Shown here: piece by piece, positions 6,889-51,842 of the stretch
How the letters are laid out: each line of letters opens with the position of its first letter
How positions within the stretch are numbered: position 1 is the first letter of the stretch
Source of the DNA: an uncultured candidate division Zixibacteria bacterium
GTDB lineage: Bacteria > Zixibacteria > MSB-5A5 > UBA10806
DNA length: 64,000 nucleotides
Reading direction: 5' to 3'
Assembly (NCBI GenBank): GCA_963801605.1
Contig: CAWDFP010000006.1
Span: forward strand, 1,536,001-1,600,000
The notes under the pieces: generated by a model
What the model was told of the DNA's origin: nothing
Database searches by the model: none
Seen by the model: the letters and a program-made list of their open reading frames with translations, nothing else
Program-made: the position numbers and the translations under genes

Positions 6889-6900
6889 GGGATAAAAATC

Positions 6901-8096: not shown

Positions 8097-8111
8097 ATTT
8101 CGAGGTTAGTT

Positions 8112-9285
8112 TTGACTGAAATAAAAACACAACCGACTGCCATCTACAAAGCCAATCAACCGCTTCTGATGCAAGGTAACGAGGCCTGCGGTTGGGGTGC
8201 GTTGGCTGCCGGATGTCGCTTCTTCGGCGGATATCCGATCACGCCATCGACCGAAATAGCCGAGCTTCTGGCGCGAAATTTGCCCAGAGTCGAGGGCCAT
8301 TTCATTCAGATGGAAGATGAAATTGCCTCCATCGCGGCCGTCATCGGCGCCTCGGTTGCCGGAGCCAAAGCGATGACAGCCACTTCCGGCCCCGGATTTT
8401 CGCTCATGCAGGAAAATCTGGGTTATGCCTATATGGCCGAGGTCCCCTGCGTAATAGTTAATGTCCAGCGCGGCGGACCATCGACCGGCCTTCCCACCAA
8501 AGTGGCTCAGGCCGATACCATGCAGGCCAAGTGGGGCACGCATGGCGATTATTATCCAATCGTTTTAGCGCCATCTTCCGTAAAAGAATGCTTTGATTTG
8601 ACGATCCGAGCCTTCAACCTCGCTGAGGTTTACCGCAGCCCGGTCATTATTCTTAGCGATGAAGTCCTCGGTCACATGCGGGAAATCGTCACCCTGCCCG
8701 ATCCATCCGAGGTGAAAGTTGAAATCGCGCGCCAAGCCTATCGATCCTCCGGAATGGTACAAACATTTTGAGGTTACTCCGGATTTTCGTTCGCCCATGG
8801 CCATCTTTGGTGATGGTTATCGCTTCCACCTCACCGGCCTGACTCACGATGAATCCGGATTCCCCACTTCGAAAACCAATGAGATCAAAGCCAAGCTTGA
8901 AAAGCTCAAACTTAAAATCATGAGACACACCGAGGAAATAACGCAAATCCGAACTGATCTCATGGAAGATGCTCATATTATGGTCTTCGCTTACGGCTCC
9001 ACCGCCAGAGCGGCCCGTCAGGCGATCCGTATCGCCCGTAAGAAACGCTTCAAAGTTGGCATGGTGCAGCCGCTCACCATCTGGCCGTTCCCCGATGATA
9101 AAATTGGACCCTTTTTAGAGCAGGTTGATACTGTAGTCGTGCCTGAGCTAAACCAGGGACAGATCATCGGCGAGATAGAACGCTTGAGCCGCAAAAGCGT
9201 CCGGATTGTGCCGCTTCAAAGATACGATGGCGAATTGATTACGCCTTCGCAGATCGTAGATGTTATAAAAGAGGAGCATGCCTGA
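8112..9285 (+). CDS. korA: 2-oxoacid (probably 2-oxoglutarate):ferredoxin oxidoreductase alpha subunit (indel near 8730)
   Basis: GNEA, GYPITPSTE, QMEDEIAS, ATSGPG, VQRGGPSTGLPT; C-terminal half in the next frame. Confidence 0.92.
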
Positions 9286-10151
9286 TATGGAACAGTCATC
9301 GAATATCACTCATAAATATCTGCGGTCGAAAAAGAAATTCCCCAATGTCTGGTGCCCCGGATGTGGCATCGGGATCGCTATGGGTGCGCTGATCCGCGCC
9401 ATCGATAGCCTGAGCCTTAAGAAAGACGATGTCGCTGTTGTCTCCGGTATCGGCTGCACGGCCAGAATTCCGGTTTATCTCGATTTCAATACCTTGCATA
9501 CTACTCACGGCAGACCGCTGGCTTTTGCTACCGGCGTCAAGCTCGCCAATCCCAAACTCAAGGTTATCGTCGTCTCTGGTGACGGTGATCTTCTGGCGAT
9601 CGGCGGCAATCACTTCATCCACGCCGCCCGCCGCAACATGGATATCACCTGCATTCTGGTTAATAATTATATCTACGGGATGACCGGTGGTCAATATTCT
9701 CCGACAACGCCGCTCACCAAGCTGGCCTCGACCGCGCCCTATGGTATGATCGAGCAATCGTTCGATCCCGCCGAGCTTGCCAAAGCCGCTGGCGCAACTT
9801 TCGTAGCACGGGGCACGGTTTATCATGCCTCCCAGCTTTCGCGTCTGATGGCCCAGGCCATCGAACGTCCCGGCTTTTCGCTTGTCGAAGTGATGTCCAA
9901 CTGCCACACTCAGTATGGCCGTATGAACCGCGAGGGTAGTGCCGTCAAGATGATCCAATGGCAAAAAGATCACGCCGTTCCTGCTACGGTGGCATCCAAA
10001 ATGACCAAAGAACAGCTTGATGGTAAATTCGTAGTCGGCGTCCTGCATGAAACTCAGAAAGCCGGGCTACGTCGAGGAGTATCAGAAGATAATCGATCGC
10101 TTCCGCGCAGTCCCGGTGGATAAACTTGAGGAAGCACCAACCTCCGGATAA
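9278..10151 (+). CDS. korB: 2-oxoacid:ferredoxin oxidoreductase beta subunit (indel near 10060)
   Basis: WCPGCG, SGIGC, TPP motif GDGD...NN, YGMTGGQYSPT. Confidence 0.92.
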
Positions 10152-10164
10152 ATCAAACTGGGGT

Positions 10165-10391
10165 GGCATGCTTCCCGAGGTCCTTTGGACGAGGAAAGCA
10201 TGTGTAGCCGTAGCTCAAACCCCTTCGGTCTTGACTATGTAGGTCGGGTTCCGAACGAACCTTGTGAGTGAGAAACCCGACAGCAAGAATTGACATCCCG
10301 GGGTAGGTCGGGTTCCGAACGAACCTTGGAGTGAGAAACCCGACTTCAATAAAATGAATAATTGTAGGTCAAATCTCTTCGGAGATTTGAC
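10165..10391 (+). repeat. Mosaic of five REP-like hairpins inside the kor operon
   Basis: Hairpins at about 10167-10202, 10210-10235, 10239-10281, 10303-10344 and 10364-10391; four begin with GTAG. Confidence 0.8.
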
Positions 10392-10422
10392 AACCCGATT
10401 TCCAAATAGGACGTGAAACTTG

Positions 10423-10989
10423 ATGAAAGACCAAAAATTCGAACGTTATGAAATCCGGCTCTCCGGTTCCGGTGGTCAGGGGCTGGTGCTTGGCGGAGTC
10501 ATTCTGGCCGAGGCTATGGGCGTCTACGAGGGCAAGAACGTCACTCAAACGCAGTCTTATGGCCCCGAAGCCCGCGGTGGCGCCTCGCGTTCCGATGTGG
10601 TTGTCTCCGATGGCGAGATCTACTACCCTAAGGCCACCGAACCCGATCTGCTGTTTTGCTTGACTCAGGAATCCTGCGATCAATACTATCCGCAGATGAA
10701 AGAGGGCGGCATCCTGGTGGTCGATAGCGAAAAGGTGCGCCAACTGCCATCGACGAAAGCTTATTCATTGCCGTTTATTAAGACCGCTAAGGAGCAGGTG
10801 GGCACTCCCGTTGTTGCCAACGTCGTCTCCATCGCGGCGGTCGCCGGGCTGACCGGACTCTGTTCAAAGGAATCGGTTCTCAAAGCCGTATTGGCTCGGG
10901 CGCCGCGCGGCACCGAGGATAAAAATAAACTCGCCTGTGAATTGGGATATGATATGGGTGTCAAAGCGAGAGAGGGTGAAAATGGCTAA
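10423..10989 (+). CDS. korC: 2-oxoacid:ferredoxin oxidoreductase gamma subunit
   Basis: EIRLSGSGGQG, QSYGPEARGGASRSDV. Confidence 0.92.
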   Translation: MKDQKFERYEIRLSGSGGQGLVLGGVILAEAMGVYEGKNVTQTQSYGPEARGGASRSDVVVSDGEIYYPKATEPDLLFCLTQESCDQYYPQMKEGGILVVDSEKVRQLPSTKAYSLPFIKTAKEQVGTPVVANVVSIAAVAGLTGLCSKESVLKAVLARAPRGTEDKNKLACELGYDMGVKAREGENG

Positions 10990-11389
10990 TCGAACACTAC
11001 TGATAATAAAACCCGATGCCGTTGAGCGTAACCTCATCGGCCAGATCATTGAACGGCTTGAACGTGCCCGCTTCAAAATTGTCGATATGAAAATGGTACA
11101 TCTGACTTATGATCAGGCGCGCAAATTCTACGCTGTCCACGAGGGCCGTCCTTTTTTGGATGAGCTTTGCAAATTCATGTCATCGGGCCCGATCGTGCCG
11201 ATGATCGTGGAATCTGACGGTGATACCATTAGCGGTATTCGCGCTCTCATCGGAGCTACCGACCCGTCTAAAGCCGCTCCCGGCACGGTTCGTCACGATC
11301 TCGCAGTTAGTCTGACCAAAAACTCAGTCCACGCTTCCGATGGCGAGGGCACTGCCAAAACAGAAATCGCCTTTTACTTCTCTCGATAG
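10982..11389 (+). CDS. ndk: Nucleoside diphosphate kinase
   Basis: RTLLIIKPDAV, FYAVHEGRPF, GATDP, NSVHASD catalytic His. Confidence 0.97.
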   Translation: MANRTLLIIKPDAVERNLIGQIIERLERARFKIVDMKMVHLTYDQARKFYAVHEGRPFLDELCKFMSSGPIVPMIVESDGDTISGIRALIGATDPSKAAPGTVRHDLAVSLTKNSVHASDGEGTAKTEIAFYFSR

Positions 11390-11398
11390 AGAGGAATA

Positions 11399-12653
11399 AT
11401 GCGGCAGAAAATTCCTTATGACGGCGCTTTGGTGGATATCAATTTCCCCAAGAGCGCCGTTGTTTTGAGAGCCCAAAAAATTTCCTCTCTTAAGCGATGA
11501 TGCCGTCAGGGACAAAATTGCCGCCGGTATTATTGACTTTCCCCATTCAGCCAAAGGCCAAAAAACATCTATTGTTATAAATGATGCCACCCGGCGCCTG
11601 CCAACTCCTAAGATACTCCGCTTCTTGTCGGAAATGATTCCGCTTTCGGATGCCGAAATTATTATCGCCACCGGCACCCATCGCGCTCCCTTAAGCGATG
11701 AATATCGATATTATGCTGGGCGATATGCGCCCCTTTTTCGAGGGCAGAATCATCGTTCATGACAGCAAAAATAAATCTTCGCTCGATTATCTGGGGGAGA
11801 CCTCGCGCGGAACGCCGGTCTGGATAAATAAAAAACTGAGTCTATCTGAGAGAATCATCTGCATCAACTCCGTCGAACCTCATTTTTTCGCAGGTTTTAC
11901 CGGAGGACGAAAATCGCTGATACCGGGCTTGGCGGGTTTCGATACCACCGTTGCCAATCACAGTCATGCCAAGCATGAGGATGCTAAAAGCTTGAATCTC
12001 GCCTCGAATCCGGTGCACCTCGATCTCGAGGAAGCCGTTTCTTTTATTAAAGGTAAGAATATATTTTCGATTCAACTTGTTACTTCGCGCCAGGGAGAAA
12101 TCGTCGATTTGTTCTGCGGAATCTTGTCTCAGAGTTTCCGTGATGCCTGCGATAAAGCCCGCGATGTTTATACAGTTGATATTGAGAATAAATACGATAT
12201 TGTTTTCGCCATCGGCGAACCCCCGCTGGATATTAATTTATATCAGCTTCAAAAAGGTCAGGAGCATGGCGCCGAGGCTGTCAAAGATGATGGAATTTTA
12301 ATCGTTGTCGGTGCCTGTAATGAGGGAAGTGGCTCAGATTATTTTATTAATCTGGCCTCAGGATTATCCCGACACCGAACTCGGCTCTTTCAGCTAAAGC
12401 CTTGGCAGACAATCGCTTCGGGATACACAAATTGGTCAAGACCGCCCGACGGTTGCGTCAACATAAAAATCTGGTATGTTACGAAATTAGATGACAGCCT
12501 TATCTCCAAAGTGTATTTTAGTCCCAAGAGTTCGATGCAAGCGGCATTAGATGAGGCGCTTGAAATAAAGGGGCCGAGGCGCCAAAATTGCGATACTTAA
12601 GGGATGCATGTTTCATTGTACCTATTTTAAATAATTCTAAAGGAGGCAATTGA
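11399..12653 (+). CDS. LarA-family nickel-pincer-dependent 2-hydroxyacid racemase/epimerase (several indels)
   Basis: Reconstructed IVINDATR and [29 protein letters not shown]...ANHS and PLDINLYQ..K motifs; GAGG SD before ATG 11399. Confidence 0.85.
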
Positions 12654-13582
12654 TGAGAAAGAAAGTTGCGATCATTGGCGCGGGTCATGTCGGCGAGAGC
12701 ACTGCCATGTATCTGGCCGAAAAAAATATCTGCGATATCGTAATGGTTGATATCATCGAAGATATGCCCAAGGGGAAGGCCCTTGATCTGGCTCAGGCCG
12801 GTCCGATTCGCGGCTATGATGTCTCGATTCGTTGGTACCAATAATTTCGCCGATATCAAAGGCTCCGAATTAGTGGTGGTCACATCCGGGATTGCGCGCA
12901 AACCCGGCATGACACGCGAAGATCTCAGCAAAACCAACGCCGCCATTATCGACTCTGTCGCCGACGAAATTAAAAAGAATTGTCCCAAGGCCATGGTTCT
13001 CATGGTAGCCAATCCACTCGATATCATGACCTATCATTGCTGGAAGAAACTTGGTTTCGATAACAAAGTCGTATTCGGACAGGCCGGCGTTCTCGATTCC
13101 GTTCGTTTCCGCACATTTGTCGGCTGGGAACTCGGCGTTTCTCCCAATGATGTTCAGGCGATGGTTCTCGGCGGCCATGGCGATACTATGGTCCCGCTGC
13201 CTCGTTATACTACGGTCGGCGGCGTGCCAATTACCGAGCTTATTGCTCCCGATCGAATTAAAGCCCTTTCAGATCGCACCAGAAACGGCGGTGGCGAGAT
13301 TGTAAAGCTGCTCAAGAGCGGCTCTGCCTATTACGCTCCCGCGGCGGCCACCGTTGAAATGGTCGATGCCGTTATGAACGATCACAAGCGCATCATGCCT
13401 TGCTCGGCTTATCTGACAGGCCAATACGGTATCAAGGATCTCTATATTGGCGTACCTGTTGTTCTTGGCGCCAATGGCGTGGAAAAGATTATCGAACTCA
13501 AACTCGACAAAGACGGAACTTGCCGCGCTCCAGGCCTCTGCTAAGACGTATAAGGAAATGTTGTCTGATATTAGGATATTAG
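12653..13582 (+). CDS. mdh: LDH-like malate dehydrogenase (indels near 12830 and 13515)
   Basis: [50 protein letters not shown]. Confidence 0.95.
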
Positions 13583-13639
13583 AATGTTAGCGTGCAGTCG
13601 GCAATTGCCGGACTGCCCAATAAATCAAGGAGAGATAAA

Positions 13640-15292
13640 ATGGGTAAAACCCTGGCTGAAAAAATTCTGAGCAGCCATTCGGGCGGGATGTACCGCCGGC
13701 GAGATTACGATCGCCAAAGTCGATCTCTGCCTGCTGCAGGATGGCACCGGGCCTCTGACTATCCGCCAGGTGGAGAAGTTGGGGGTAACGAAACTGGCCA
13801 ATCCTCAAACGTACGGTTTTCTTTTTGGATCACGCCTCGCCCGCGCCGCGCAAGGAGCTTTCCAACGATCACATGTTCATCCGGCAATTTGCCGCCAAAA
13901 TGGGTGCGCATCTCGTCGATGTCGGCAGAGGAATCTGCCATGTGGTCATTAATGAAAAATTTGTCAATCCCGGCGAGATCCTGATCGGCGCCGATAGCCA
14001 TACCTGCACCGGTGGCGCGCTGGCTTGTTTCGCGACCGGAATGGGTTCCACCGATGTCGGTATCGGAATGGCCTATGGTAAAACCTGGTTCCGCGTACCG
14101 GAGACATTTAAAATTTATGTGACCGGCGAATTTCCGCTGGGCGTATTCCCCAAGGATTTGATTCTGCATCTTATCGGCCTGATCGGTGCCGATGGCGCAA
14201 CCTACAAATCGTTGGAATTCTGCGGACCGACTATCGATAAGATGGATATGTCGGGACGGTTTACGCTTTCGAATATGGCGGTCGAGGCCGGCGCCAAGGT
14301 CGGACTTATTGCCTCCGATGAAACCACTCGCGCCTATCTTGAGAATATGGGTCGCGGCGATAAATATATCCCGCTTAAGGGCGACGATAACGCCGAATTT
14401 GAACGCGTGATCGAAATCGATGTTTCCAAGCTTACGCCCACGGTCAGCTTCCCGCATACCGTCGATAATACTCGCACCATCGAGGAGGCGGTCGGCACCA
14501 AAATCGATCAGGTTTTCCTCGGTACCTGTACCAATTCCCGAATTGAGGATTGGGAAGTTGTCGCCAAAATGATTAAAGGGAAAGAAAAAAGCGCGCGAAT
14601 ATCCGCTTCATCGCTGTGCCCGGTTCTGAGGATGTCTTAAAGGAAGCAATTTCCAGAGGGTACTATCAAACCTTAATCGAATTTGGCGCCGTAATGGTCA
14701 CACCCGGCTGCGGTCCTTGCGTAGGAATCCACGAGGGCGTGCCCGGTGACGGTGAAGTCCGTACTTTCGACTCAGAATCGTAATTTCCAGGGACGAATGG
14801 GCAATCCTGAATCTTCGATTTATCTGGCTTCACCGGCAACCATTGCGGCTACCGCTATCGAGGGCAAACTCGCCGATCCCGAAAATATGTCAAGGAGCTT
14901 CAGAGTATCGGACATCCGGATGTGATCGACACCGAGGCCTTGAAAGCCCTGGCTAAATCCGCTCAGAAAACAGTCGAACGCGTTGCGATGGATACCGCCG
15001 CATATCTGGGCCCGGCCGCCAAAGATGCTTCCGTGAAAGTTGAGGGCATGGCCAGGAAGGCGATTAGCGATTATGCTCCCAAAGCGCAGCAGGCCGCCAA
15101 AGAGTTTGAATCCAAACTTATCCAAACTAACTTCGGACGTTTCTAAAGCGGTAAAGGATGCCTTAAAATCCAAATCTGCCCCGAAAGCCGGGAAAAAGCT
15201 AGCCCGTAAAAAGATAACTGCCAGCACCAAAAAAAGCGCATCAACCAAAACGCCGCAAGGCCGTCAAAGCCAAGCGTGTGACGAAAAGGTAG
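13640..15292 (+). CDS. LeuC/homoaconitase-type aconitase-family large subunit, probably with a long C-terminal extension (multiple indels)
   Basis: [51 protein letters not shown]...ADP(RKY); the end at 15292 is reconstructed across indels. Confidence 0.85.
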
Positions 15293-15302
15293 GAGGTGAA
15301 AT

Positions 15303-15802
15303 ATGCTTAAGGGAAAAGCCTGGAAATTCGGCGATGGAATTTCGACTGATCATATCGCTCCCGGACGGTATTTTCATCTTCGTTCCAATATGCCGGAATT
15401 GGCCAAACATGTTTTGGAGGATGCCGATCCTGAATTCGCCTCCAAAATGACTCCCGGCGATTTTGTTGTCGGCGGCAAGAACTTTCGGATTGGGATCATC
15501 GACGTGAGCATGCTCCGACCATCATCAAAATGGCTGGGGTATCGGCCGTACTGGCGAAATCGTTTGCGCGGATTTTCTTCCGTAATGCGGTCAATGTTGG
15601 CTTGCCGGTTCTCATCTGCGATACGGATAAAATCAACGCCGGCGATCAGCTCGAGGTTAATCTTGAATCCGGCGAGATTCACGATCTCACCAACGGCCAG
15701 AAACTTGATTTCAAACCGTTGCCAAAATCGATGATCAGAATTTTGAACGATGGCGGCCTGATCGCCCATTTACAAAAACACGGCGATTTTAAGCTGGATT
15801 GA
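15303..15802 (+). CDS. LeuD/homoaconitase-type small subunit (indels near 15490-15530)
   Basis: GKAWKFGDGISTDHIAPGRY, GKNF, AKSFARIFFRNAVNVGLP, GGLIAHL; AGGAGG SD. Confidence 0.9.
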
Positions 15803-15813
15803 TTAGTTATTTC

Positions 15814-15923
15814 GTAACCGGGGGACCACTATGGTCCCCGGTCATTTAGGCTGTCACCTTTGTAGGTCAAAACCCCTTGGCGGTTTTGACAAACCTGTGT
15901 GGGTCGGATTCCGAAAATTCGAC
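15814..15923 (+). repeat. REP-like hairpin cluster
   Basis: ACCGGGG..CCCCGGT (15814-15842), GTAGGTCAAAACC..GGTTTTGAC (15862-15890), degenerate GTGGGTCGGATT..AATTCGAC (15899-15923). Confidence 0.7.
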
Positions 15924-15955
15924 AAAAAACTAAAACCAAATACTTGCAAACAACT

Positions 15956-16147
15956 ATGTTCAAAAATTTTTCACGAATTCTCTGGGGCCTGGTTTTTATC
16001 GCTATAGGCATTGCCTTGCTGATGGATCGATTCGGATATATCGTATTTGATCTGGGCAACTTCCTGCATAACTGGTGGCCCTTGATCCTGGTCATTATCG
16101 GCTTGGGAATGATACTCGATAAAGCGCCTGAAAAACGGACGAAGTAA
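15956..16147 (+). CDS. Small two-TM LiaI/LiaF-like (DUF5668-like) membrane protein
   Basis: ILWGLVFIAIGIALL...NWWPLILVIIGL. Confidence 0.7.
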   Translation: MFKNFSRILWGLVFIAIGIALLMDRFGYIVFDLGNFLHNWWPLILVIIGLGMILDKAPEKRTK

Positions 16148-16149
16148 TC

Positions 16150-16732
16150 ATGCCTGTTGGCCGGGATTATCGATTTGGCGGCAGACTCCTTGCCGGGATT
16201 ATCATCATCTTTCTCGGCTTGCTTTTTCTTCTGGGCAATATCTATCCCGAATTCGATGCCGCGCGCTACCTTGGAAAACTCTGGCCGCTTATCATAATCG
16301 TTATCGGACTTTATCTGATTTTCCACCAGGCGCGCCGACAGACATCATATTTTTATAGGGGGATCATCAGGCCGCAACCGGGTTGTCGGTGATATCGATC
16401 TTGATTATTCTAATAAAGAAATCGGTAATGCCGATGCTTCCCAGATCGTGGGTGATCTTAAAATCAATTATTCCGGCGGCCATCTCAAACCTGGCATAAA
16501 TCATTTTACCATCTCCATGATTGTCGGAGATACTCTCCTGATAGTCCCGGCGGCGTTTCCCTTGAGAATTTCCGCCAGAACTATACTTGGAGATATTCAA
16601 ATCGATGGTCAACGCCAGGAGGGCTTTCTGCCCCGATTGGAACACCTGGATAGCAATTACCAAACCGCCGAGAGCAAACTATTTATCACCATAAATAGTA
16701 TCATCGGCGATATGACCGTCAGGAGATCATGA
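16150..16732 (+). CDS. LiaF-related membrane protein with C-terminal beta-rich domain (indel near 16360)
   Basis: GIIIIFLGLLFLL...KLWPLIIIVIG followed by repeated xGDxxI strands (VGDLKI, IVGDTLL, LGDIQI, IIGDMTV). Confidence 0.7.
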
Positions 16733-16739
16733 ATTCGGT

Positions 16740-16778
16740 GTAGGTCGGGTTCCGAGTCCCTTGGACGAGAAACCCGAC
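16740..16778 (+). repeat. GTAG REP-like hairpin
   Basis: GTAGGTCGGGTTCCGAGTCCCTTGGACGAGAAACCCGAC, near-identical to the copies at 5372, 23123 and 32057. Confidence 0.85.
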
Positions 16779-16834
16779 AATGAAACTTGAATATAATCGA
16801 TAATTAACACAACTCGCATCACATTGGAGGAGAA

Positions 16835-18078
16835 TTGAAATTCAAAAAACTTGAAATCCCTGCGGAGGGTACGCCAATAAAAATCGTCGGTAATAAAATT
16901 AAGGTACCTGACGATCCCATCATTCCTGTTATCGAGGGCGATGGCATCGGCCCCGATATCATGCGCGCCACCCGACGAGTGGTGGATTCTGCGGTGGAGA
17001 AAATGCTATGGCGGCAAAAAACGTATCGTTTGGTTTGATATCTATGCCGGTGATGCCGCTAACGAACGCTATGGCGAATACCTGCCAAAAGACACTCTCG
17101 ATGCTATCAAAACTTATATCGTGGCTCTCAAAGGCCCGTTGACTACTCCAATCGGAGGCGGCTTTCGTTCCCTTAACGTCACCCTGCGACAGGTGCTTGA
17201 TCTCTATGCTTGCGTCCGGCCGGTTCGCTACTTCACTGGCGTTCCTGCGCCGGTAACTCATCCCGAACGAATGAATGTCGTCATCTTCAGGGAAAATACT
17301 GAGGACGTTTACGCCGGTATTGAATGGCGCAAGGGAACTAAGGAAGCCCGAAAAATAATCAGCTTCATTAAAAGTGAGATGGGGATTAAGATTCGCACCG
17401 ATTCAGGCATCGGCATCAAACCAATGTCGGACTTCGGCACCAAACGTCTGGTGCGCAAAGCCATTAACTATGCTCTGGAAAATAACCGCAAATCGGTGAC
17501 CCTGGTACACAAGGGTAATATCATGAAATATACCGAGGGCGCTTTCCGCGACTGGGGTTATGAATTGGCTAAAGAGGAGTTCGCTAAGAAAACCATCACC
17601 GAAACCGAGCTTGACTGAAAAATATAATGGCGAAATTCCGGCAGGTCGCATCGTAATCAAGGATCGTATCGCCGATTCCATGTTCCAACAGATTCTCACC
17701 CGCACCGATGAGTACGAAGTTCTGGCCACTCCCAATCTAAACGGCGATTATCTTTCTGACGCTTGTGCCGCTCAGGTTGGCGGTCTCGGAATGGCTCCGG
17801 GCGCCAATATCGGCGATTTTATAGGGTTGTTCGAGGCTACTCACGGCACCGCGCCCAAGTATGCCAACAAAGATATGATTAATCCTGGTTCGTTGCTGCT
17901 TTCGGCGGTTTTGATGCTTGAATATCTTGGCTGGAACGAGGCTGGCCATGCTATTGAAAATGCGATTGAAAAAACGATCATGCAAAAAACCGTAACCTAC
18001 GATCTCGAACGTCAAATGGCCGGAGCCACCAAGGTTTCAACCTCGCAATTTGGAACCCACATCATCGCAAATTTATAG
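16835..18078 (+). CDS. icd: NADP-dependent isocitrate dehydrogenase (indels near 17000 and 17610)
   Basis: [65 protein letters not shown]. Confidence 0.96.
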
Positions 18079-37461: not shown

Positions 37462-38739
37462 GTGCACGGCGAAAATAAGAAGAACTGGTGGAAATCGGCC
37501 CTGCCGAACTGTAAACCCCAAACGAGGGTCCTGACCGTCGGATACGATCCGGGCCTGTCCGAAATGTCGGCCAAGGTCCCGATCTTTCCAACCTCGACAT
37601 TCCTATTCAAAACCGCGGAGGACGGCGAGCGCTTTTTCCATCTGCAAAACCACCCCGAGGATAGGGGTCCCGATGACGATCTCGGCCTGATCTATTCCCG
37701 CATGAACAATCCCAATATGGAGATTGTCGAGGATAAGATGCTGGTTCTCGAACCGGGCGCCGAAGCCGCCGCCGTGCTGCCATCGGGTATGTCGGCCATA
37801 TCGACCATGTGTTTGGCTCTCCTCAAACCGGGCGACCTTATTATCTACTCCGCCCCCGTTTACGGCGGCACCGAGCATTTTTTCCATGATATTCTTTCAA
37901 AATTCGGCATAAAGGCTGTTCCCGTTTATGGCCCTGATCCCGCCGAATATAAATTAGCGTTGGATGCTAATAAAGACAGTGTCGCTATGGTATTTTTGGA
38001 AACCCCGGCTAACCCCACCATGGCCCAGACCGATATCGAGGCAATCGTAAAACTAACAGGCCAATATAAAGGCGCAAACGGACATATTCTGGTGGTTGCC
38101 GATAACACCTTCCTGGGGCCGGTTTTCCAGCATTGTTTCCCTCTGGGAGTCGATTTGGTAGTCTACTCGGCCACCAAGTTTTTAGGCGGCCACTCCGATC
38201 TCATTGGGGGATTTGTTTTGGGCCGTAAGGCAGAGCTTATTAAAGTCAAATCGTTCCGCTCGGTTTTAGGAGCGACCACCGATCCTTTCTGCTGCTGGCT
38301 GATGTCACGTTCTCTGGAGACGGTCGAGCTTCGCATGCGTCAATGCGCCGAAAACGCCAAGGAAGTAGCGGGATTTCTGAACACTCATCCCAATATCACC
38401 AAAGTTATTTATCCGGGTCTCCTTAAAGAATGTGATCCGGAATACAAAATTTATAAAAAGCAATCCAGCGGACCGGGTTCGCTGATTTCCTTCTATGTTA
38501 AGGGCGGCAAGAAGGAGGCATTCGAGGTCCTGAACAATGTCAAAATTTGCCGGTTGGCGGTCAGCCTGGGCGGAACAGAGACCCTGATCGAGCATCCACG
38601 CAGGCATACCCATGCCAGTGTACCGGAGGAAATGTGCCAGAAGGTTGGTTTGACTGATTCAATGATCAGGATTTCTATCGGCCTTGAGGCACCCTGCGAT
38701 TTGATCGATGATCTTAAGCAGGCTTTGGATAGAATTTAA
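37462..38739 (+). CDS. Cys/Met metabolism PLP enzyme (methionine gamma-lyase / cystathionine gamma-synthase family)
   Basis: YSRMNNPN, SGMSAI, LETPANP, DNTF, SATKFLGGHSD (PLP Lys), AVSLGGTETL. Confidence 0.92.
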   Translation: MHGENKKNWWKSALPNCKPQTRVLTVGYDPGLSEMSAKVPIFPTSTFLFKTAEDGERFFHLQNHPEDRGPDDDLGLIYSRMNNPNMEIVEDKMLVLEPGAEAAAVLPSGMSAISTMCLALLKPGDLIIYSAPVYGGTEHFFHDILSKFGIKAVPVYGPDPAEYKLALDANKDSVAMVFLETPANPTMAQTDIEAIVKLTGQYKGANGHILVVADNTFLGPVFQHCFPLGVDLVVYSATKFLGGHSDLIGGFVLGRKAELIKVKSFRSVLGATTDPFCCWLMSRSLETVELRMRQCAENAKEVAGFLNTHPNITKVIYPGLLKECDPEYKIYKKQSSGPGSLISFYVKGGKKEAFEVLNNVKICRLAVSLGGTETLIEHPRRHTHASVPEEMCQKVGLTDSMIRISIGLEAPCDLIDDLKQALDRI

Positions 38740-38760
38740 TAGAATAAGCAGCATTTATAG

Positions 38761-38786
38761 AGGGCTCGTCGGAGCCCTTTTTTTAT
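38761..38786 (+). terminator. Intrinsic terminator
   Basis: AGGGCTC/GAGCCCT stem followed by a T-run. Confidence 0.8.
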
Positions 38787-38890: not shown

Positions 38891-40222
38891 ATGAGTATCA
38901 ACAGACTTACGCTGATTTTGGCGGCTGGAGCATTGATTATTTTATCACCTCTGAATTCCTACGCCGTTCCAAGTTATGCCCGTCAAACAAACTTAGCCTG
39001 CAAGACGTGCCATTATCTTTTTCCGGAGTTGAATTCGTTTGGACGATTGTTCAAGCTTCACGGCTATACCCAGGTTGGAACCGATGTTATTGAAGCTAAG
39101 AATAGCAAAGACAAAACCTCGCTGAGCCTTCTGAAAATTCCTCCTCTTTCCGGAATGCTGCAGGCGACTTTCAATCATTTGAATACCGGAATTCCCGGCA
39201 CTCAGAATAATGACGTTAATTTTCCGGAGCAGTTGAGTTTCTTTTTCGCGGGGCAGGTAACGCCAAATTTCGGGGCATTCGTACAGTATACATACGCGGT
39301 TGAGGGCGCCTCGTTCAATCTCGATCTGGTGGATATTCGTTTTGCCAATGAAACGGAGCTTGGCTCAAAAGATTTGGTTTACGGAGCGACTTTAAATGAT
39401 AATCCCACTATTCAGGATGTATGGAATAGCACCCCTATCTGGGGTTTCCCTTACGCGGCCTCATCGATTACCCCAGGGCCATCGGCATCAACCATAATCG
39501 AGGGAGGTTTGGAGCGCCAGGTGGCCGGACTGGGTGTTTATGCTCTCTGGAACAGACTGATTTACGGCGAGTTTGATCTGTATCGGTCAGCGCCGCAAGG
39601 AGGCGATCATCCGCCGGATTCAACGTCGGAGCGAATCATTAAGAAATTGGCTCCGTATTGGCGAATAGCTCTTCAAAAACAGTGGCCGGGACAATATTTG
39701 TCGGTGGGCGCTTATGGAATCTCTGCCAGGTTATTTCCCACCGGGGTTAGCGGCCTGACCGACCGCTTTAACGATCTGGCGTTTGATTGTCAATATGAGC
39801 GCATGGTTGGCGACGGCAATTTTACGGCGCATGGCACATATATTCACGAGAAGCAGAATCTGACGGCCACATTTTCGGATGACGGTTCTACAAATAAGAT
39901 AATCAAATTGAACACGTTAAGGCTCAACGCCAATTATTATTTCGAAAGTTACGTCGGAGTTTCCCTGGGATACTTTTCAACGACCGGCACCAAGGACCAA
40001 ATATTATATGCATCTGCGCCGGTTTTCGGGAGCCGGTTGGGCAGCCCCAATAGCGATGGAGTCATAGCCGAACTTGATTTTGTCCCCTGGCTAAACACGA
40101 AATTTTCCATTCAATACGCAATTTATGATAAATTTAACGGCGCCAAGAAAAACTATGACGGTTTCGGAAGAAACGCATCCGATAACAACACGCTGTACCT
40201 GCTGTCATGGTTCGCTATGTAA
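38891..40222 (+). CDS. cyc2: Cyc2-like fused monoheme cytochrome c / outer-membrane porin
   Basis: Signal peptide then AVPSYARQTNLACKTCHYLFPELNSFGRLFKLHGY, matching the Cyc2 N-terminal signature; the remainder is beta-strand-like and ends LYLLSWFAM. Confidence 0.85.
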   Translation: MSINRLTLILAAGALIILSPLNSYAVPSYARQTNLACKTCHYLFPELNSFGRLFKLHGYTQVGTDVIEAKNSKDKTSLSLLKIPPLSGMLQATFNHLNTGIPGTQNNDVNFPEQLSFFFAGQVTPNFGAFVQYTYAVEGASFNLDLVDIRFANETELGSKDLVYGATLNDNPTIQDVWNSTPIWGFPYAASSITPGPSASTIIEGGLERQVAGLGVYALWNRLIYGEFDLYRSAPQGGDHPPDSTSERIIKKLAPYWRIALQKQWPGQYLSVGAYGISARLFPTGVSGLTDRFNDLAFDCQYERMVGDGNFTAHGTYIHEKQNLTATFSDDGSTNKIIKLNTLRLNANYYFESYVGVSLGYFSTTGTKDQILYASAPVFGSRLGSPNSDGVIAELDFVPWLNTKFSIQYAIYDKFNGAKKNYDGFGRNASDNNTLYLLSWFAM

Positions 40223-40249
40223 TCGATATTAATAAAGAAGGAGAATGAA

Positions 40250-40813
40250 ATGAAAAAATCAGTACTTATCATGGTGATATTGCTGGCCATCGTGCCGGTT
40301 TACTTGTCGTCACAATTGCTGGCGCAAGAAAAAATGGGCTCATCCGAAAAAAAGATGGCCAAACTTGATACATCAAAGGTTAAGGCCGAAACTAAGAAGG
40401 ATGATATGGCCATGCCCGCCATGAAAGATTCAACCAAGGCCGGTGAAAAATCCTCGCATAAATCCGATGACAAAGGGATAGGTCCCATCAAGGAGCTAAA
40501 GTTGGGTCCGATTGATACGTCGATGGTTTCCAAGGGACAGGCGCTGTTCCAAAGTCAGTGCGTAACCTGTCATCAATTAGATAAGAAAAAGATAGGCCCG
40601 CCGCTTCGCAACGTAACCGATCAAATGACTCCCGAATTTATCATGAATATGATCCTGAATACTGACATCATGGAAAAGAAAGATCCCGAGGTTAAAAAGC
40701 TGATCTCGGAATATGGCACCTATATGTCGGTATTGGATATCAAGCCGGATCAGGCTCGTCAACTGTTGGAATTTTTGAGATGGGCAGGCAAACAACCGCC
40801 AAATAAAAAGTAG
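40250..40813 (+). CDS. Periplasmic monoheme class I cytochrome c with Lys/Met-rich linker
   Basis: Signal peptide; KGQALFQSQCVTCH..IGPPL; distal Met region YGTYM; 27 nt after the cyc2-like gene. Confidence 0.88.
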   Translation: MKKSVLIMVILLAIVPVYLSSQLLAQEKMGSSEKKMAKLDTSKVKAETKKDDMAMPAMKDSTKAGEKSSHKSDDKGIGPIKELKLGPIDTSMVSKGQALFQSQCVTCHQLDKKKIGPPLRNVTDQMTPEFIMNMILNTDIMEKKDPEVKKLISEYGTYMSVLDIKPDQARQLLEFLRWAGKQPPNKK

Positions 40814-40944: not shown

Positions 40945-41800
40945 ATGCTGTTAGGCGCGCACATGTCTATTGCAGGAGGGGTATATAACGCCCTTTTAGA
41001 TGGTGAAAAGGTTGGCTGTACCACAATTCAAATCTTTACCAAATCGAGTAACCAGTGGCGGGCAAAGGAGCTTGGCGACGATGAAGTTAGCCCGCTATCA
41101 CGCCGAACAAAAAAGGACAGGTATTTCCCCGGTTGTAGCGCATGATTCATATCTGATAAATCTCTGCTCGCCGGACGATACCCTGCTTGAAAAATCACGC
41201 CAGGCATTTTTGATCGAGATGACCAGGTGCGAAAAGCTGAAGATTCCGTATTTGGTTACTCATCCCGGCGGCCACATGGGACAAGGCGAAGAAGAGGGCC
41301 TGAAGAAGATCGCCGAATCTCTCAATTGGCTCCATGAGAAATCGCCTAATTTCAAAGTCAAGGTTGCGCTGGAAAGCACCGCCGGCCAGGGGACAGGTCT
41401 CGGTTACCGATTCGAACAATTAGCGCGGATGATCGAGCTTTGCTCTCAACCGGAGCGGGTCATGGTATGTCTCGATACCTGCCATATTTTCGCGGCCGGT
41501 TATGATATCACAACTCAGGAGAGTTACAATAAAACGTTTTCGGAGTTCGACCGTATAATAGGCCTGAAGCGCCTGGCGGCAATTCACCTAAACGACTCCA
41601 AAAAGGGTCTCGGTTCGCGGGTGGATCGTCACGAGCATATCGGCAAGGGGACTATCGGAGAAAAGCCTTTCGGATTCATTATGAAAGATAAGCGGCTTGA
41701 TAAGATCCCCAAACTTTTGGAAACCCCCAAGGAAAATGAAATGGATTCAGTCAATCTGGGTATCCTCCGAAAGTTAGCGGGGGCAAGCGGCAAAAAATGA
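40945..41800 (+). CDS. nfo: Endonuclease IV (indel near 41090)
   Basis: LGAHMSIAGG, AHDSYLINL, HPG, LESTAGQG, CLDTCH, HLNDSK, DRHEHIG, LETP. Confidence 0.95.
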
Positions 41801-47087: not shown

Positions 47088-49205
47088 ATGAATCGTAGCA
47101 TTTTTGCCTGGGCTACCACTCTGACGATTATAATTTTCGCAAACTCGAAGGCTCAGTATATCAATTTTTTGGGATCTACTCTGTGGCATCAGGCAAACGG
47201 CGTTCAGGTTGTGGGGAATTATGCTTATTGCGCATTCAAGTATGGGATCGTCATCCTCGATATATCTGACCGCACGGCTCCTCAATTTTTAGGCCAATGC
47301 CCGCTTACAGGCGAAGGTAAGGAGATTGCGGTTTGGGGAAATTATGCCTATCTGGCCGAGGGAAACGGCGGCCTGAAGGTTGTCGATATCTACGATCCTC
47401 AGAATCCTGTCAGAATCGCCGAGATTAATCGGGCCGGATATGTCGAAGATGTTGCCACTGATGGACAATACCTTTACATGGCCTGCGGAGAAAGTTTTTA
47501 TGACGGGGATAATATCCTGATAGTCGATATTGCCGATCCGACACAGCCAAATGTAGTTGGACACTGTTTCGTTTCCTCGGAGGCTACGGGCATTTCAGTA
47601 CAAGGGGCTTATGCTTATGCAACATCTGATGCTGGGTTGAGCGTCATTGCCATCCGGCCTCCCGAAAGTCCCCATATAGTGGCTACTCTCGGGTTCCAAC
47701 AGGATTTCCCTTACGGGTTGTGTGTATCCGGCAACTATGCATATGTAGCGTCATACTTGACGAATCTGCGAATTATTAATATCTCCAATCCAGCATTGCC
47801 CTCAATAACCGGCTCGATTGATCTTTATGACGTTAGTTGGGATGTTGCCGTATCCGGCCAGTACGCTTATTTGGCATCCGGTTATCAGGGGCTGTATGTT
47901 GTGAATGTCGCCAATGCATCTGCCCCTGTTCTTGTCGATAGCCTCGATACTGCCGACCTATGCTGGGGTTTATTTGTGGATGATAACTATGCTTACCTTG
48001 CTGATCGTAATAACGGTTTTTTGGCGGTAAATATAACCAATCCCCATATTCCAGTAGTTAGCGGAACATACGCATCGGCTTGGTATCCGAACAGCATACA
48101 GATATCAGGACAATATGCCTTTATAGCAGATGCTTACGATTGTCTTTGGGTCGTCGATATCGATGACCTGCTCGAACCGAGACTCGCCTATAGGTACAAT
48201 TGCGGGGCATCTATTTATACTATGGCTCTGAGTGATACCCTCATCTTTGCAGCTTGCGGCTATCAGGGTTTCAGGGCCTATGATATTTCAGATCCGATAA
48301 ATCCGTCCCAGATCGGCAGCTATTCCGGAGTATACGCGCTGGATTTGGCTGTATCGGGAAGGTACGCTTACGTTTCGGATGCCACCTCCCGGAGGTTAGC
48401 CGTATTTGATATTGCCAATCCGCGCAATCTTCATATCGATGGGCAGCTTGCTTTGAGCATCAGTGTCAGAGGGATTTGTCTTCTGGGAAATACTCTGGCT
48501 ATCAACGATCTTTACGACATTAAGACAATTGATATTTCTGATCCCATACATCCTGCCTTGCTGGGAACTTATAACGTAAATTCCATTCCAAATGATATGG
48601 CGGCTTTTGGGTGGCGTTATATATTGGTTTTGGGAAACAGTGCTGTTACTATTTTGGATATTGCCGATCCCGCCAACCCTGAGTTGGTCACGACCATTCA
48701 ATTGAATTCCTTTTCTGAGAAATTCTGCGTGACAGGAAATCTGGTTTATATCTGCACCGACGAGTACATGGCAGTTTATGACATCAGTAATCCACGAGCC
48801 CCTGTTTCCCGAGGTACATATGGAAATGAATGTCACACTGTTACTGCTACTAACGATTATATCTATTTGGGGGAACCCTATTCCTTTACCATATTGACAG
48901 CCTTGAGGCAGCCGGATGCAACTGAATCTTACCAAATTGGGAAATCGTATTTTCTTGGATTGAACTACCCCAACCCCTTCAACGCCCAAACGACGATAAG
49001 CTATTCTTTGTTTACGCGCTCAAATGTCTCGATAGAGATATTTGATATCGCAGGCAGAAAACTGGAAACGCTTCAAGGGGGATATCAGGAAGCCGGGGAG
49101 CATTCGATTGTATGGAATGCGAAGGATAGGGCATCCGGCGTATATTTCTATCGGCTCAGGGCGGGGGAGACCTCTCAAACCCAGAAGTGCATCTTATTAA
49201 AATAA
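47088..49205 (+). CDS. LVIVD-repeat secreted protein with T9SS-type sorting domain
   Basis: Many GNYAY..GL.(I/V)(V/I)DI.(D/N)P repeats; NYPNPFN C-terminal domain. Confidence 0.9.
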   Translation: MNRSIFAWATTLTIIIFANSKAQYINFLGSTLWHQANGVQVVGNYAYCAFKYGIVILDISDRTAPQFLGQCPLTGEGKEIAVWGNYAYLAEGNGGLKVVDIYDPQNPVRIAEINRAGYVEDVATDGQYLYMACGESFYDGDNILIVDIADPTQPNVVGHCFVSSEATGISVQGAYAYATSDAGLSVIAIRPPESPHIVATLGFQQDFPYGLCVSGNYAYVASYLTNLRIINISNPALPSITGSIDLYDVSWDVAVSGQYAYLASGYQGLYVVNVANASAPVLVDSLDTADLCWGLFVDDNYAYLADRNNGFLAVNITNPHIPVVSGTYASAWYPNSIQISGQYAFIADAYDCLWVVDIDDLLEPRLAYRYNCGASIYTMALSDTLIFAACGYQGFRAYDISDPINPSQIGSYSGVYALDLAVSGRYAYVSDATSRRLAVFDIANPRNLHIDGQLALSISVRGICLLGNTLAINDLYDIKTIDISDPIHPALLGTYNVNSIPNDMAAFGWRYILVLGNSAVTILDIADPANPELVTTIQLNSFSEKFCVTGNLVYICTDEYMAVYDISNPRAPVSRGTYGNECHTVTATNDYIYLGEPYSFTILTALRQPDATESYQIGKSYFLGLNYPNPFNAQTTISYSLFTRSNVSIEIFDIAGRKLETLQGGYQEAGEHSIVWNAKDRASGVYFYRLRAGETSQTQKCILLK

Positions 49206-49397
49206 TTGCCTATATATAATTTACAGCCGGGGTCCCTAAGGACCCCGGTTTCTGTAATAGGGCTTACCCTAACCGTCCCTGCCAGATATTGGAACTAATT
49301 AAACCCGGTAAACTGTTAATGCCATAGATTGACCGATACAAGCTGCAGTCAGTATTCGGGGTTATCCGGAATACTATTTTATTCAAATCGAGGAAAT

Positions 49398-51842
49398 ATG
49401 AAAATTCTTGTTTCCACGCTATTTCTGATACTGGTTACATTAGATGCTTATGCTTTTGAGCCGCTATTTGATACCAGGGTAGATTACACCTTATCGGAAC
49501 CTGCCAACCACTTGGTGACATGTGACCTGAACGGTGACGACTGTCTGGATATCGCAGTTGCGCCTTATTATGGCGACAGCCTGTCAATTTTACTTGGCAA
49601 TTGCGATGGCACATTCCAAACTCCAGTAACCTACGGCGGCCTTGATTCAGCACTTTCCCTTTTTGCAATCGATCTCGAAAATGACGGCTTTCCGGACCTG
49701 GCGGTCATCGATGTCCATAGAACAAAGGTAACAATATTTAAAAACATTGGTAATGCATTTCAACTGGATACCAGTTATAGTGTTGGTTTGCGGTTATCAT
49801 CTATATGGTGCGCGGATATCAACAACGATGGTTACACTGATATTATAATAGCGGATTATTATGGTACCTCGCCCCTCACGATCCTTTTTAATAATGGCTA
49901 TGGGGTATTTTCTACCAGAAGACAGATACAGCTAATCTCACAAGCCGTATCGATTATTGCCGATGATTTTAATAATGATGAAATTCCAGATATTGCAGCG
50001 GTTGGTTATTCCAGCCAACCACAATCTGCTTTGGGAATTCTCATTAATAACGGCCATGGGCAATTCAGCGATACAACTAAATTTATTTCTAATGGATATT
50101 ATACCTTGAGAGCAGGCGATATTAATGGTGATGGCTTCGATGATATTGTCGCAGCAAGCATAATGGACAGCCTTGCAATTTATCTAAATAATGGCAATGG
50201 TTCATTTCAGTTATCAACCGAATTGCCCGCCGGCATGGAATCCAGGTCTATTGCAATCGATGATCTGAATGGTGATGAATCAAACGATCTTACCATAGTT
50301 GAACATTACAATTCGCATATAACTACATATCTCAATAATGGCAATGGATCATTTGCTGTGACAGATACTTACTTCGTCCCAGCTCATCCCCGGTGGGTTT
50401 CAGGCGGAGATTTCAATTTAGACGGGCATATTGACATGGCGGTGGCAAGTAACGATGGGAAAGCCGTTTCAGTATTGAATAATGACGGAACAGGTAAGTT
50501 CATTATGCCTTCACTTTACGATTTTCCCGTTAACCCAACAAGAGTCTACTGCGCCAATCTTGACGGGAATCGGCTTAGCGATCTTGTTGTGAAAACAAGT
50601 AACAATTTATTGGCTTTACTTATTAATCAATCTGACATGCATTTTACACAATCATTTATAACTCCTGCGCCACTCGAAGATAACACAATACTAATTGGCG
50701 ATTTCAACGGAAATTCCACCGACGATTTCGCGATTATTCATCACCCCCCCATCGATTCGTTGGAAATAAGGATATTTTATAATGATGGAACGGGCAATAT
50801 TATTGGCGGTACACGCGTAAATATCCCGTATTATGATTCACCAAAGTATTATGTGTCTGAATTGAACGGAGATGGAATAGATGATATTATTGTGGGAGGC
50901 ATTCCTGATAGCATAAGCGTAATCCTGAGTAATCAAAGCGGATCGTTTAATCGGCCGGTACAATATCATATCCCCGGCTTGATGACCACCTTGCTTCTGG
51001 CATGCGACTTCGATTCGGATGGCCTAAATGATATTATTGCTGGGAGAGACACCCTTACGATTTTTCGAAATACCGGTAACGGTGTTCTCGAACAAGCAAC
51101 GTCATTTGTGTTGTCGTCCACCCAATACAATAAGATATTCGGAATTGATTTTGATAATGATTCAAATAATGATTTGATACTCTTGCGCGATTATTCGAAC
51201 CAGTTTCAGTTGCTAAGAAATATAGGTAATTTGAATTTTCAGAATGCGGGCTTCATTAGGATAGTGAATGCATCCACTAATGCAATTGCAGCTGACATTA
51301 ATAATGATAATTTGGTAGATATAATCCCATATTTTCAAGATTATGGCATAAGCCCTTATCTAAATCAGGGAAATAGTACTTTTACGACACCATTTCGATA
51401 TGGCACAAGGCGTAAAACGCCGGGATATGATGGCATGTTCGCTGCCGGAGATATAGACGGCGATAGAGCACTGGATATTATAGAGGCGGGATTTCCGGAA
51501 TTTCCGAATAAGATATCCGTCATGCTAAATAAAACCATGGTACAAGACGTGCTTGAAAACCCAAATATTAATTTGCCCAATCATACTTCATTGTTGTGCA
51601 ACTACCCCAACCCTTTCAACGCCCAGACCACAATTAGCTATTCTTTGTTTACGCGCTCAAATGTTTCGATAGAGATATTTGATATTGCAGGCAGAAAAGT
51701 GGAAACGCTTCAAGGAGGATACCAGGAAGCCGGGGAGCATTCGATAGTCTGGAATGCGAGGGATAGGGCATCAGGAGTGTATTTCTACCGGGTTAAGGCG
51801 GGGGATGTATCAAAAGCGGAGAAATGCGTATTGCTGAAGTAA
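49398..51842 (+). CDS. FG-GAP/VCBS-repeat secreted protein with T9SS-type sorting domain
   Basis: Repeated DLNGD..DI and NNGNGSF motifs; GAGG SD before ATG 49398; NYPNPFN C-terminal domain. Confidence 0.9.
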   Translation: MKILVSTLFLILVTLDAYAFEPLFDTRVDYTLSEPANHLVTCDLNGDDCLDIAVAPYYGDSLSILLGNCDGTFQTPVTYGGLDSALSLFAIDLENDGFPDLAVIDVHRTKVTIFKNIGNAFQLDTSYSVGLRLSSIWCADINNDGYTDIIIADYYGTSPLTILFNNGYGVFSTRRQIQLISQAVSIIADDFNNDEIPDIAAVGYSSQPQSALGILINNGHGQFSDTTKFISNGYYTLRAGDINGDGFDDIVAASIMDSLAIYLNNGNGSFQLSTELPAGMESRSIAIDDLNGDESNDLTIVEHYNSHITTYLNNGNGSFAVTDTYFVPAHPRWVSGGDFNLDGHIDMAVASNDGKAVSVLNNDGTGKFIMPSLYDFPVNPTRVYCANLDGNRLSDLVVKTSNNLLALLINQSDMHFTQSFITPAPLEDNTILIGDFNGNSTDDFAIIHHPPIDSLEIRIFYNDGTGNIIGGTRVNIPYYDSPKYYVSELNGDGIDDIIVGGIPDSISVILSNQSGSFNRPVQYHIPGLMTTLLLACDFDSDGLNDIIAGRDTLTIFRNTGNGVLEQATSFVLSSTQYNKIFGIDFDNDSNNDLILLRDYSNQFQLLRNIGNLNFQNAGFIRIVNASTNAIAADINNDNLVDIIPYFQDYGISPYLNQGNSTFTTPFRYGTRRKTPGYDGMFAAGDIDGDRALDIIEAGFPEFPNKISVMLNKTMVQDVLENPNINLPNHTSLLCNYPNPFNAQTTISYSLFTRSNVSIEIFDIAGRKVETLQGGYQEAGEHSIVWNARDRASGVYFYRVKAGDVSKAEKCVLLK

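Follow-up and report, generated by a model that had tools for sequence, protein, structure and literature searches.

A two-gene locus in the genome of an uncultured candidate division Zixibacteria bacterium (GenBank assembly GCA_963801605.1, contig CAWDFP010000006.1) pairs a fused cytochrome-porin of the Cyc2 family with a secreted monohaem cytochrome c. The locus occupies positions 38891-40813 of a stretch of 64,000 nucleotides (nt; contig positions 1,536,001 to 1,600,000, here called the window), and its two open reading frames, ORF1 and ORF2, are both intact and lie 27 nt apart. By sequence and predicted fold, ORF1 is a member of the Cyc2 family, as every defining criterion of PMC8406198 that was examined could be recognized in it, and comparison with related loci supports a functional link between the two genes. 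Electrons may pass from dissolved Fe(II) through Cyc2 and cytochrome c to a caa3 oxidase and O2, supplementing the energy supply of a heterotroph, a proposal that we consider evenly poised between right and wrong. The locus adds a member to a known family and is not a new system, being one more Cyc2 of predicted function from a heterotrophic candidate phylum. It would, however, identify one particular electron acceptor, the Rhodothermus-type cytochrome c, along with a complete route to O2. The pair also offers a compact two-gene test of iron oxidation by a non-acidophile Cluster 2 Cyc2, which bears on how thousands of metagenomic cyc2 calls are read.

Architecture of the cytochrome-porin and its partner

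Cyc2 proteins have been delimited (PMC8406198) by a signal peptide, a single CXXCH, the signature AXPXFAR[Q/K][T/Y], a PXL motif, a length of at least 365 amino acids (aa) and a 16-strand porin resembling OprO/OprP. The N-terminal region of ORF1 reads PSYARQT-NL-ACKTCH-YL-FPEL-NS-FGRLFKL-H-GY, which agrees letter for letter with the signature quoted in an earlier note on this DNA; the 27-nt gap and the single CXXCH of the second gene given there were also confirmed. Within this region, AVPSYARQT fits the published signature with Tyr in place of Phe, as seen in 16% of 128 relatives (those of 150 listed representatives with 400-530 aa and an N-terminal CXXCH). Each ORF contains exactly one CXXCH, that of ORF1 being invariant in an alignment of homologues (A1), and Pro45-Glu-Leu47 supplies the PXL motif four residues past it. 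With 443 aa, ORF1 exceeds the minimum length, and its mature N-terminus is predicted to be Val26. These features and a fold matching 16-strand porins uphold the assignment to Cyc2 made in the earlier note, whose caution that not every Cyc2 homologue is a proven iron oxidase also stands. An aromatic C-terminal motif had been described as well; Trp440 and Phe441 are indeed present, but the protein ends in Met, a final residue found in 4 of the 128 relatives, compared with F/Y/W in 112. The features of the pair are as follows.

38891-40222, + strand: ORF1, Cyc2-family fused monohaem cytochrome c-porin of the RQT type (443 aa, from translation)
38891-38965, + strand: predicted Sec signal peptide of ORF1, residues 1-25, ending Ser-Tyr-Ala (pattern-based; hydrophobic residues 7-19)
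38966-39076, + strand: haem plug domain of ORF1, residues 26-62, with signature motif, CXXCH and PEL (sequence and criteria of PMC8406198)
38999-39013, + strand: CXXCH of ORF1 (Cys37, Cys40, His41)
39146-40216, + strand: predicted 16-strand beta-barrel of ORF1, residues 86-442 (AlphaFold2, Foldseek, VIA-align)
40238-40243, + strand: Shine-Dalgarno-like AAGGAG inside the 27-nt gap, 6 nt ahead of the ORF2 start (read off the sequence)
40250-40813, + strand: ORF2, secreted class I cytochrome c with one haem, Rhodothermus marinus type (187 aa, from translation)
40559-40573, + strand: CXXCH of ORF2
40724-40726, + strand: Met159 of ORF2, at the position of Rhodothermus Met100 (alignment to 3CP5)

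Homologues of ORF1 were abundant: at E<=0.001 they numbered 4003 among 7998 scored candidates, and 5076 representatives passed the same threshold. Since 683 representatives (at 50% identity) also reached E<=1e-30, chance cannot account for this homology. Sequence searches returned no family for ORF1 in Pfam or NCBIfam and no solved relative in the PDB, and a profile search with ORF1 gave a single match that was non-significant and unrelated. In the ESM Atlas, its clusters were unnamed or labeled 'cytochrome c', the nearest named family being Porin_O_P (20% of members).

An AlphaFold2 model of ORF1, built on alignment A1 (70 of 120 listed homologues), had a mean per-residue confidence score (pLDDT) of 81.7 and a predicted template modeling score (pTM) of 0.80, with low confidence in the haem domain (pLDDT <50 at residues 24-28 and 34-46). 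The beta-barrel check proposed in the earlier note was thereby run and gave 16 strands spanning residues 86-442. Using Foldseek, the best query-normalised TM-scores among the matches listed were obtained for OprO/OprP (0.51-0.53), and VIA-align superimposed ORF1 on OprP with a Z of 21.5 and a root-mean-square deviation of 3.7 over 325 aligned residues, level with other 16-strand porins; the porins matched by both programs include 2O4V and 4RJW. OprO/OprP are also the published templates for Cyc2 models (PMC8406198). Ten residues are conserved in 79-100% of the 128 relatives (Asp145, Asp148, Arg150, Asp176, Glu227, Tyr256, Arg258, Asp295, Asp299 and Glu320), and the polar strand faces of the model hold Asp148, Arg150, Glu227, Tyr256, Arg258, Asp295 and Asp299. 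The barrel lumen is thus predicted to be acidic and conserved, with the haem plug at its periplasmic end. Asp/Tyr sites are needed in Cyc2 of Acidithiobacillus ferrooxidans according to a 2026 review (PMC13741234), and by analogy, rather than by alignment, these may be equivalent to the conserved residues of ORF1. A conduit of the MtoAB/MtrAB/PCC kind, in which a large porin and a multihaem cytochrome are separate proteins, was ruled out by the one haem per protein and the fused 16-strand barrel. As a side observation, comparison of the Cyc2 haem domain (alignment A2) with cytochrome c7 (PDB 3H34) gave a match that was not significant (E 0.36) over CXXCH-x3-P...FG, possibly a shared haem-binding element.

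ORF2 matches PF00034 (E 1.5e-10), and among solved structures it is closest to R. marinus cytochrome c (PDB 3CP5; E 3.7e-25, residues 76-180 aligned). A signal peptide without lipobox is followed by a charged linker of ~50 aa and then the haem domain, in which Met159 takes the place of Met100, which we take to be the axial haem ligand of the R. marinus protein. A Met lies 45-56 residues past the CXXCH in all 120 of 120 ORF2 homologues. As judged from these alignments, ORF2 is an R. marinus-type monohaem cytochrome c of class I that is secreted, and its location is likely periplasmic. Both proteins keep the CXXCH and the Met100 equivalent, and both hosts have alternative complex III (ACIII) and caa3; unlike its R. 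marinus counterpart, ORF2 has the charged linker at its N-terminus, and its gene comes immediately after that of an outer-membrane cytochrome.

Conservation of the pairing and placement among Cyc2 clusters

Conservation of the gene pair in related genomes, a check that had been suggested for this locus, was assessed in two sets of loci that may overlap. A barrel-only query of 285 Zixibacteria genomes recovered this type of Cyc2 in six, one copy of which ends at a contig edge. In all six carriers, which represent three families, the same type of cytochrome is encoded directly 3' of Cyc2 in otherwise unrelated surroundings. Cytochromes of the ORF2 type occur in 52 of the 285 genomes, and the five linked non-self cytochromes are five of the six best non-self matches to ORF2 among these 52. 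The second set comprised the best 80 of 590 named loci, of which 14 with <800 nt of flank were set aside, leaving 66 evaluable. A same-strand cytochrome c was found within 250 nt of cyc2 at 34 of these 66 loci (13 of the ORF2 type), and in other lineages the same slot holds different monohaem or dihaem cytochromes c or an iron-sulfur protein of high potential (HiPIP). In the six plasmid homologues that were examined out of 15 matches, an annotated c-type cytochrome follows directly in three and lies 0.5-2 kb away in two, and one record is unannotated. A pairing this common is neither new nor minimal, and the earlier description of the locus as a candidate minimal module was overstated. Two features of relatives were seen in passing: in six (L017, L022, L035, L038, L062 and L073) cyc2 stands beside a Rieske protein gene and a gene for a fusion of cytochrome b with c-type haem domains, and two (L034 and L089) carry a tandem duplicate of cyc2.

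ORF1 was placed among its relatives using a quick 68-row tree, whose rows were hand-picked from the loci and include no characterised or published reference Cyc2. ORF1 fell in a clade of Bacteroidota, Ignavibacteria, Calditrichota and Zixibacteria (Shimodaira-Hasegawa-like approximate likelihood ratio test, SH-aLRT, 96), nested in a wider RQT group that also takes in Proteobacteria and homologues carried on plasmids (SH-aLRT 100). Members of this group from Ralstonia, Caballeronia, Paraburkholderia, Ideonella, Methylocystis and Acidithiobacillus (the last plasmid-borne) are 33-44% identical to ORF1, values that equal or exceed the 26-35% published for identity within one Cyc2 cluster (PMC8406198 Fig. 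S7). Cluster 2 includes the Cyc2 of A. ferrooxidans, Ferrovum, Thiomonas and Burkholderiales, and Burkholderiales are among those grouped with ORF1 here. Eight RKY-type Zixibacteria proteins formed a separate clade, 18-21% identical to ORF1. Because these RKY types stand apart, Cyt572 of Cluster 3 has an RKY-type N-terminus (PMC13741234) and Bacteroidota Cyc2 have been assigned to Cluster II (PMC9769843), ORF1, a Cyc2 of the RQT type, likely belongs to Cluster 2, on a tree without characterised references. One relative of ORF1 comes from a Bacteroidota metagenome-assembled genome (MAG) of the latter study, in whose table its own cluster entry is blank. Cluster 3 was rejected by proxy, through the separate RKY-type clade and its 18-21% identity, with Cyt572 itself absent from the tree, and no Zetaproteobacteria or Gallionellaceae (taxa of Cluster 1, which also has Chlorobium Cyc2) were present among the 80 best named loci. 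One of the eight RKY-type proteins comes from a second Cyc2-like gene of the same genome, 18% identical to ORF1 (C6:415891-418280; L096:1892-4281), directly behind a gene resembling di-haem CCP/MauG/MbnH, and a close RKY homologue occurs in genome G004.

Among characterised proteins, Cyc2 of A. ferrooxidans (Cluster 2, 485 aa, 560 mV at pH 4.8; PMC13741234, PMC8406198) shares with ORF1 the signal peptide, single N-terminal CXXCH, 16-strand OprO/P-like barrel and a cytochrome c partner. The two systems differ in that the Zixibacteria bacterium is not known to oxidise iron, the pair has neither rusticyanin nor cox genes next to it, and the partner is a monohaem Rhodothermus-type cytochrome rather than the dihaem Cyc1. 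Cyc2PV-1 of Mariprofundus ferrooxydans (Cluster 1, 208 mV; PMC8406198) has the same architecture, signature motif and proposed mechanism for dissolved Fe2+; unlike M. ferrooxydans, the present host has an A-type oxidase and no carbon-fixation marker that was found, and Cluster 1 taxa are missing from the best named loci as noted above. ORF1 is 46-60% identical to named Cyc2 relatives of one clade (MAGs of Bacteroidota, Ignavibacteria, Calditrichota, Gemmatimonadota and Zixibacteria). Cyc2 together with iron oxidation/reduction genes has been reported for Zixibacteria and Ignavibacteriales (PMC8478452), and Cyc2 homologues of heterotrophic candidate phyla are in print (PMC9769843, PMC7005843, PMC7914226, PMC7029218). 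A fixed pairing with a Rhodothermus-type cytochrome is not described in the available text of PMC9769843 or PMC8478452, and the M. roseus paper makes no mention of Cyc2. According to the same two studies, DeMMO communities have mostly Cluster 3, in contrast to the RQT type found here, which is rare in the phylum (6/285).

Host respiration and the proposed electron route

Ribosomal protein L9 of the host is 92% identical to one assigned to Zixibacteria, the only taxon named among the matches listed for it. The host genome is 86.9% complete, and the following regions bear on the fate of the electrons.

C6:429972-443921: cluster of ACIII, SCO, CoxB with CXXCH, CoxA, CoxC, caa3 subunit IV and haem A synthase (CtaA)
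C6:304876-314625, C6:773354-788176, C6:861617-866203 and C7:3698-9697: multihaem cytochrome clusters with putative porins (up to 58 and 42 CXXCH)

The earlier note had held that the central metabolism looks anaerobic, pointing to a ferredoxin-linked oxidoreductase. This premise fails because the genome encodes ACIII-caa3 and haem A synthase as well as a complex I of the NADH type (NuoF with a NuoG-like subunit), and the same mix occurs in the aerobic-capable Zixibacteria RBG-1, which has ferredoxin enzymes including 2-oxoglutarate:ferredoxin oxidoreductase next to ACIII and aa3 (PMC3903129). CcmA/C-like maturation genes and a quinol-type nitric oxide reductase (qNOR; C9:51284-53548, - strand; L100:3284-5548) are also present. 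Searches of this 86.9%-complete genome turned up no RuBisCO, acetyl-CoA synthase or NirK, and no nitrate reductase, the sole molybdopterin-family match being the NuoG-like subunit; a match to the bd-oxidase family was weak and fell in a CXXCH-bearing protein. CoxA has a YSHP motif, which is of the A2 type.

In the proposed route, Fe2+ would enter the acidic pore of the ORF1 barrel and reduce the haem plug, and the His/Met partner ORF2 would ferry the electron on to caa3, at the cytochrome c domain of its subunit II. Reduction of O2 by caa3 would then generate a proton motive force. Here the architecture and the linkage are observed or predicted, and we infer the substrate and the direction of electron flow. 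R. marinus cytochrome c, the nearest solved relative of ORF2, is a carrier of the ACIII/caa3 chain, where ACIII reduces the soluble cytochrome c and operates with caa3 (PMC5928083), and by analogy this argues for the proposed route. A single haem, predicted at the periplasmic end, would be suited to dissolved Fe2+ that moves into the pore, not to a wire reaching solids (PMC8406198). The host could then be a heterotroph, facultatively aerobic and living at a redox boundary, with Fe(II) oxidation as an energy supplement, as no carbon-fixation marker was found in its genome. R. marinus cytochrome c also gives electrons to oxygen reductases.

Several observations weigh against this route. The host coxA is split by a single frameshift near C6:440020, with its His motifs kept. 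Core genes of the window are broken in the same way (5740-18078, 40946-41800), korA and icd lying in two pieces, sucC, mdh and aconitase being partial, and larA and the endonuclease IV gene nfo being broken, suggesting indel errors in the assembly, so that the coxA split is likely to be such an error. The other five Cyc2 carriers of the phylum have CoxA, and that of the relatives is intact; however, CoxA exceeds the cut-off in 137 of the 285 Zixibacteria genomes, and its presence in six of six carriers is therefore a weak enrichment. No adjoining same-strand cytochrome was seen at 32 of the 66 evaluable loci, mostly from Gemmatimonadota, in counts that stand without a random-gene control, and the six carrier genomes are related, so their counts are not independent. 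The host also has large multihaem clusters (proteins with up to 58 CXXCH motifs) that are typical of electron export. Among the matches listed, the nearest homologues of ORF1 belong to Ignavibacteria, Bacteroidota, Calditrichota, Gemmatimonadota and Burkholderiaceae, groups that are mostly not known as iron oxidisers. Finally, much of Clusters 2 and 3 is far from characterised enzymes and of unverified function (PMC8406198).

Electrons might instead follow the same inward route from another donor or for another purpose, the pair serving Mn(II), reduced humics/quinones or a metal chelate, or clearing Fe(II) from the surface as a protection and not for the sake of growth. Such a role would fit the wide occurrence of this Cyc2 type among heterotrophs of soils and sediments and on plasmids, as well as the unrelated surroundings of the pair from genome to genome, with no iron genes beside it here; additional Cyc2 functions are also allowed by PMC8406198. 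We nevertheless regard it as rather unlikely, as Fe(II) is oxidised by each of the three members of the family that are characterised (PMC8406198, PMC13741234) and the predicted acidic lumen fits a cation.

An outward route, from ACIII or a bc complex through the small cytochrome and Cyc2 to soluble chelates of Fe(III), serving respiration or the uptake of iron, is unlikely in our estimation. The reduction of soluble cytochrome c by R. marinus ACIII (PMC5928083) is compatible with it, as are the cytochrome b/c fusion near cyc2 at 6 of 81 loci and the Rieske protein nearby at 8 of 81, the wealth of export-type multihaem clusters in the host, and the cyc2 homologues (Cluster 3) of iron reducers such as Geobacter (PMC7005843). 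However, linkage to bc/ACIII would also fit reverse electron flow in iron oxidisers (PMC7029218), the host has better candidates for export, and Cyc2 acting as a reductase is not reported in the available text of PMC8406198 or PMC13741234. An incidental linkage, in which ORF2 is a general respiratory carrier and ORF1 acts alone or is little used, would agree with the many Zixibacteria genomes that have an ORF2-type cytochrome, mostly without this Cyc2, and with the absence of an adjoining cytochrome at about half of the loci, but is made very improbable by the adjacency in all six carriers over three families, the greater likeness among linked than unlinked cytochromes, and the several unrelated cytochrome types found in the same slot.

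A candidate sixth haem ligand and the surroundings of the pair

Alignment of the Cyc2 N-termini revealed a fixed register between signal peptide cleavage and haem attachment. A small-x-small peptidase site lies exactly 12 residues ahead of the first Cys in 124 of the 128 relatives, followed by x-Pro in 122, in a set gathered with a profile that covers the signature region and with cleavage sites called by pattern rather than SignalP. In these 124, the predicted mature N-terminus thus begins the Cyc2 signature, 11 residues before the haem Cys, and the same register was seen in RKY types and plasmid homologues. Between the hydrophobic stretch and the Cys, the spacing has an interquartile range of 17-20 in Cyc2 versus 56-78 in the partner family. 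A weaker alternative site three residues later fits 86 of the 128. Edman sequencing of Cyt572 placed cleavage at the position described here (PMC13741234), and the haem His is mature residue 16 both in ORF1 (His41 after 25) and in A. ferrooxidans Cyc2 (His47 after a 31-aa signal; PMC13741234).

The mature start of Cyc2, x-Pro-x-Phe/Tyr-Ala-Arg-Gln/Lys, parallels that of cytochrome f, x-Pro-x-Phe-Ala-Gln-Gln (PMC2291561), in which the N-terminal Tyr1 ligates the haem (PMC8044140). By this analogy, which concerns haem ligation only as the two differ in fold and in spacing (His25 in cytochrome f versus His16), the Cyc2 signature could serve for haem ligation, its first Ala marking the signal-peptidase site and the free N-terminal amine being the sixth haem ligand throughout the Cyc2 family, in RQT and RKY types alike. 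We put this forward tentatively, a little short of an even chance. Where alpha and beta bands are resolved, the haem should be low-spin and six-coordinate. Such resolved bands are reported for Cyc2 (PMC13741234), and in the AlphaFold 3 models of the same review His is the sole ligand. That result would be explained by ligation through the amine, as the models were numbered with their signal peptides and backbone nitrogens were left out. Against the proposal, homology of cytochrome f to Cyc2 was not detected (0 of 31 PDB matches at E<=10, and no such Pfam family listed), and Met89 (73% conserved, on the polar face of strand 1) and Lys55 (98%), neither of which is kept in the RKY type, are rival ligands in the clade of ORF1. 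A whole-word search of open papers found none joining Cyc2 with cytochrome f, its scope leaving aside subscription papers such as the original Cyt572 and Cyc2 modeling studies. If true, ligation by the N-terminal amine would resolve how the haem is coordinated in the marker most widely relied on for iron oxidation, and Cyc2 constructs would be ruined by N-terminal tags or by a shift of the signal peptide.

Upstream of the pair, two further features were recorded.

37462-38739: gene for a Cys/Met-metabolism pyridoxal phosphate (PLP) enzyme (family searches)
38759-38780, + strand: terminator-like hairpin of 9 pairs with a T-run, 20 nt past the stop of that gene

The upstream terminator described in the earlier note is borne out by the hairpin and its T-run, but the region is no richer in such sites than shuffled sequence (9 versus 9.8), and the hairpin is credible as a terminator from its position and T-run alone. 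No sigma-70 site was called upstream of ORF1, and no common upstream motif was seen across four aligned promoter regions. A family search of the window proteins placed no rusticyanin, cox or iron genes beside the pair, and the gene downstream of ORF2 is the frameshifted nfo (sequence and family search). A foreign origin was rejected on composition, the GC content of ORF1 and ORF2 (0.47 and 0.44) and that at third codon positions (GC3; 0.52 and 0.54) matching the genome means of 0.48 and 0.51. Given this host-like composition, the patchy spread of Cyc2 reflects old transfer or loss. Elsewhere in the window (5-5183 and 47088-51842), secreted proteins with C-terminal sorting domains of the type IX secretion system (T9SS) type or similar are encoded, three of them in tandem and with BNR repeats.

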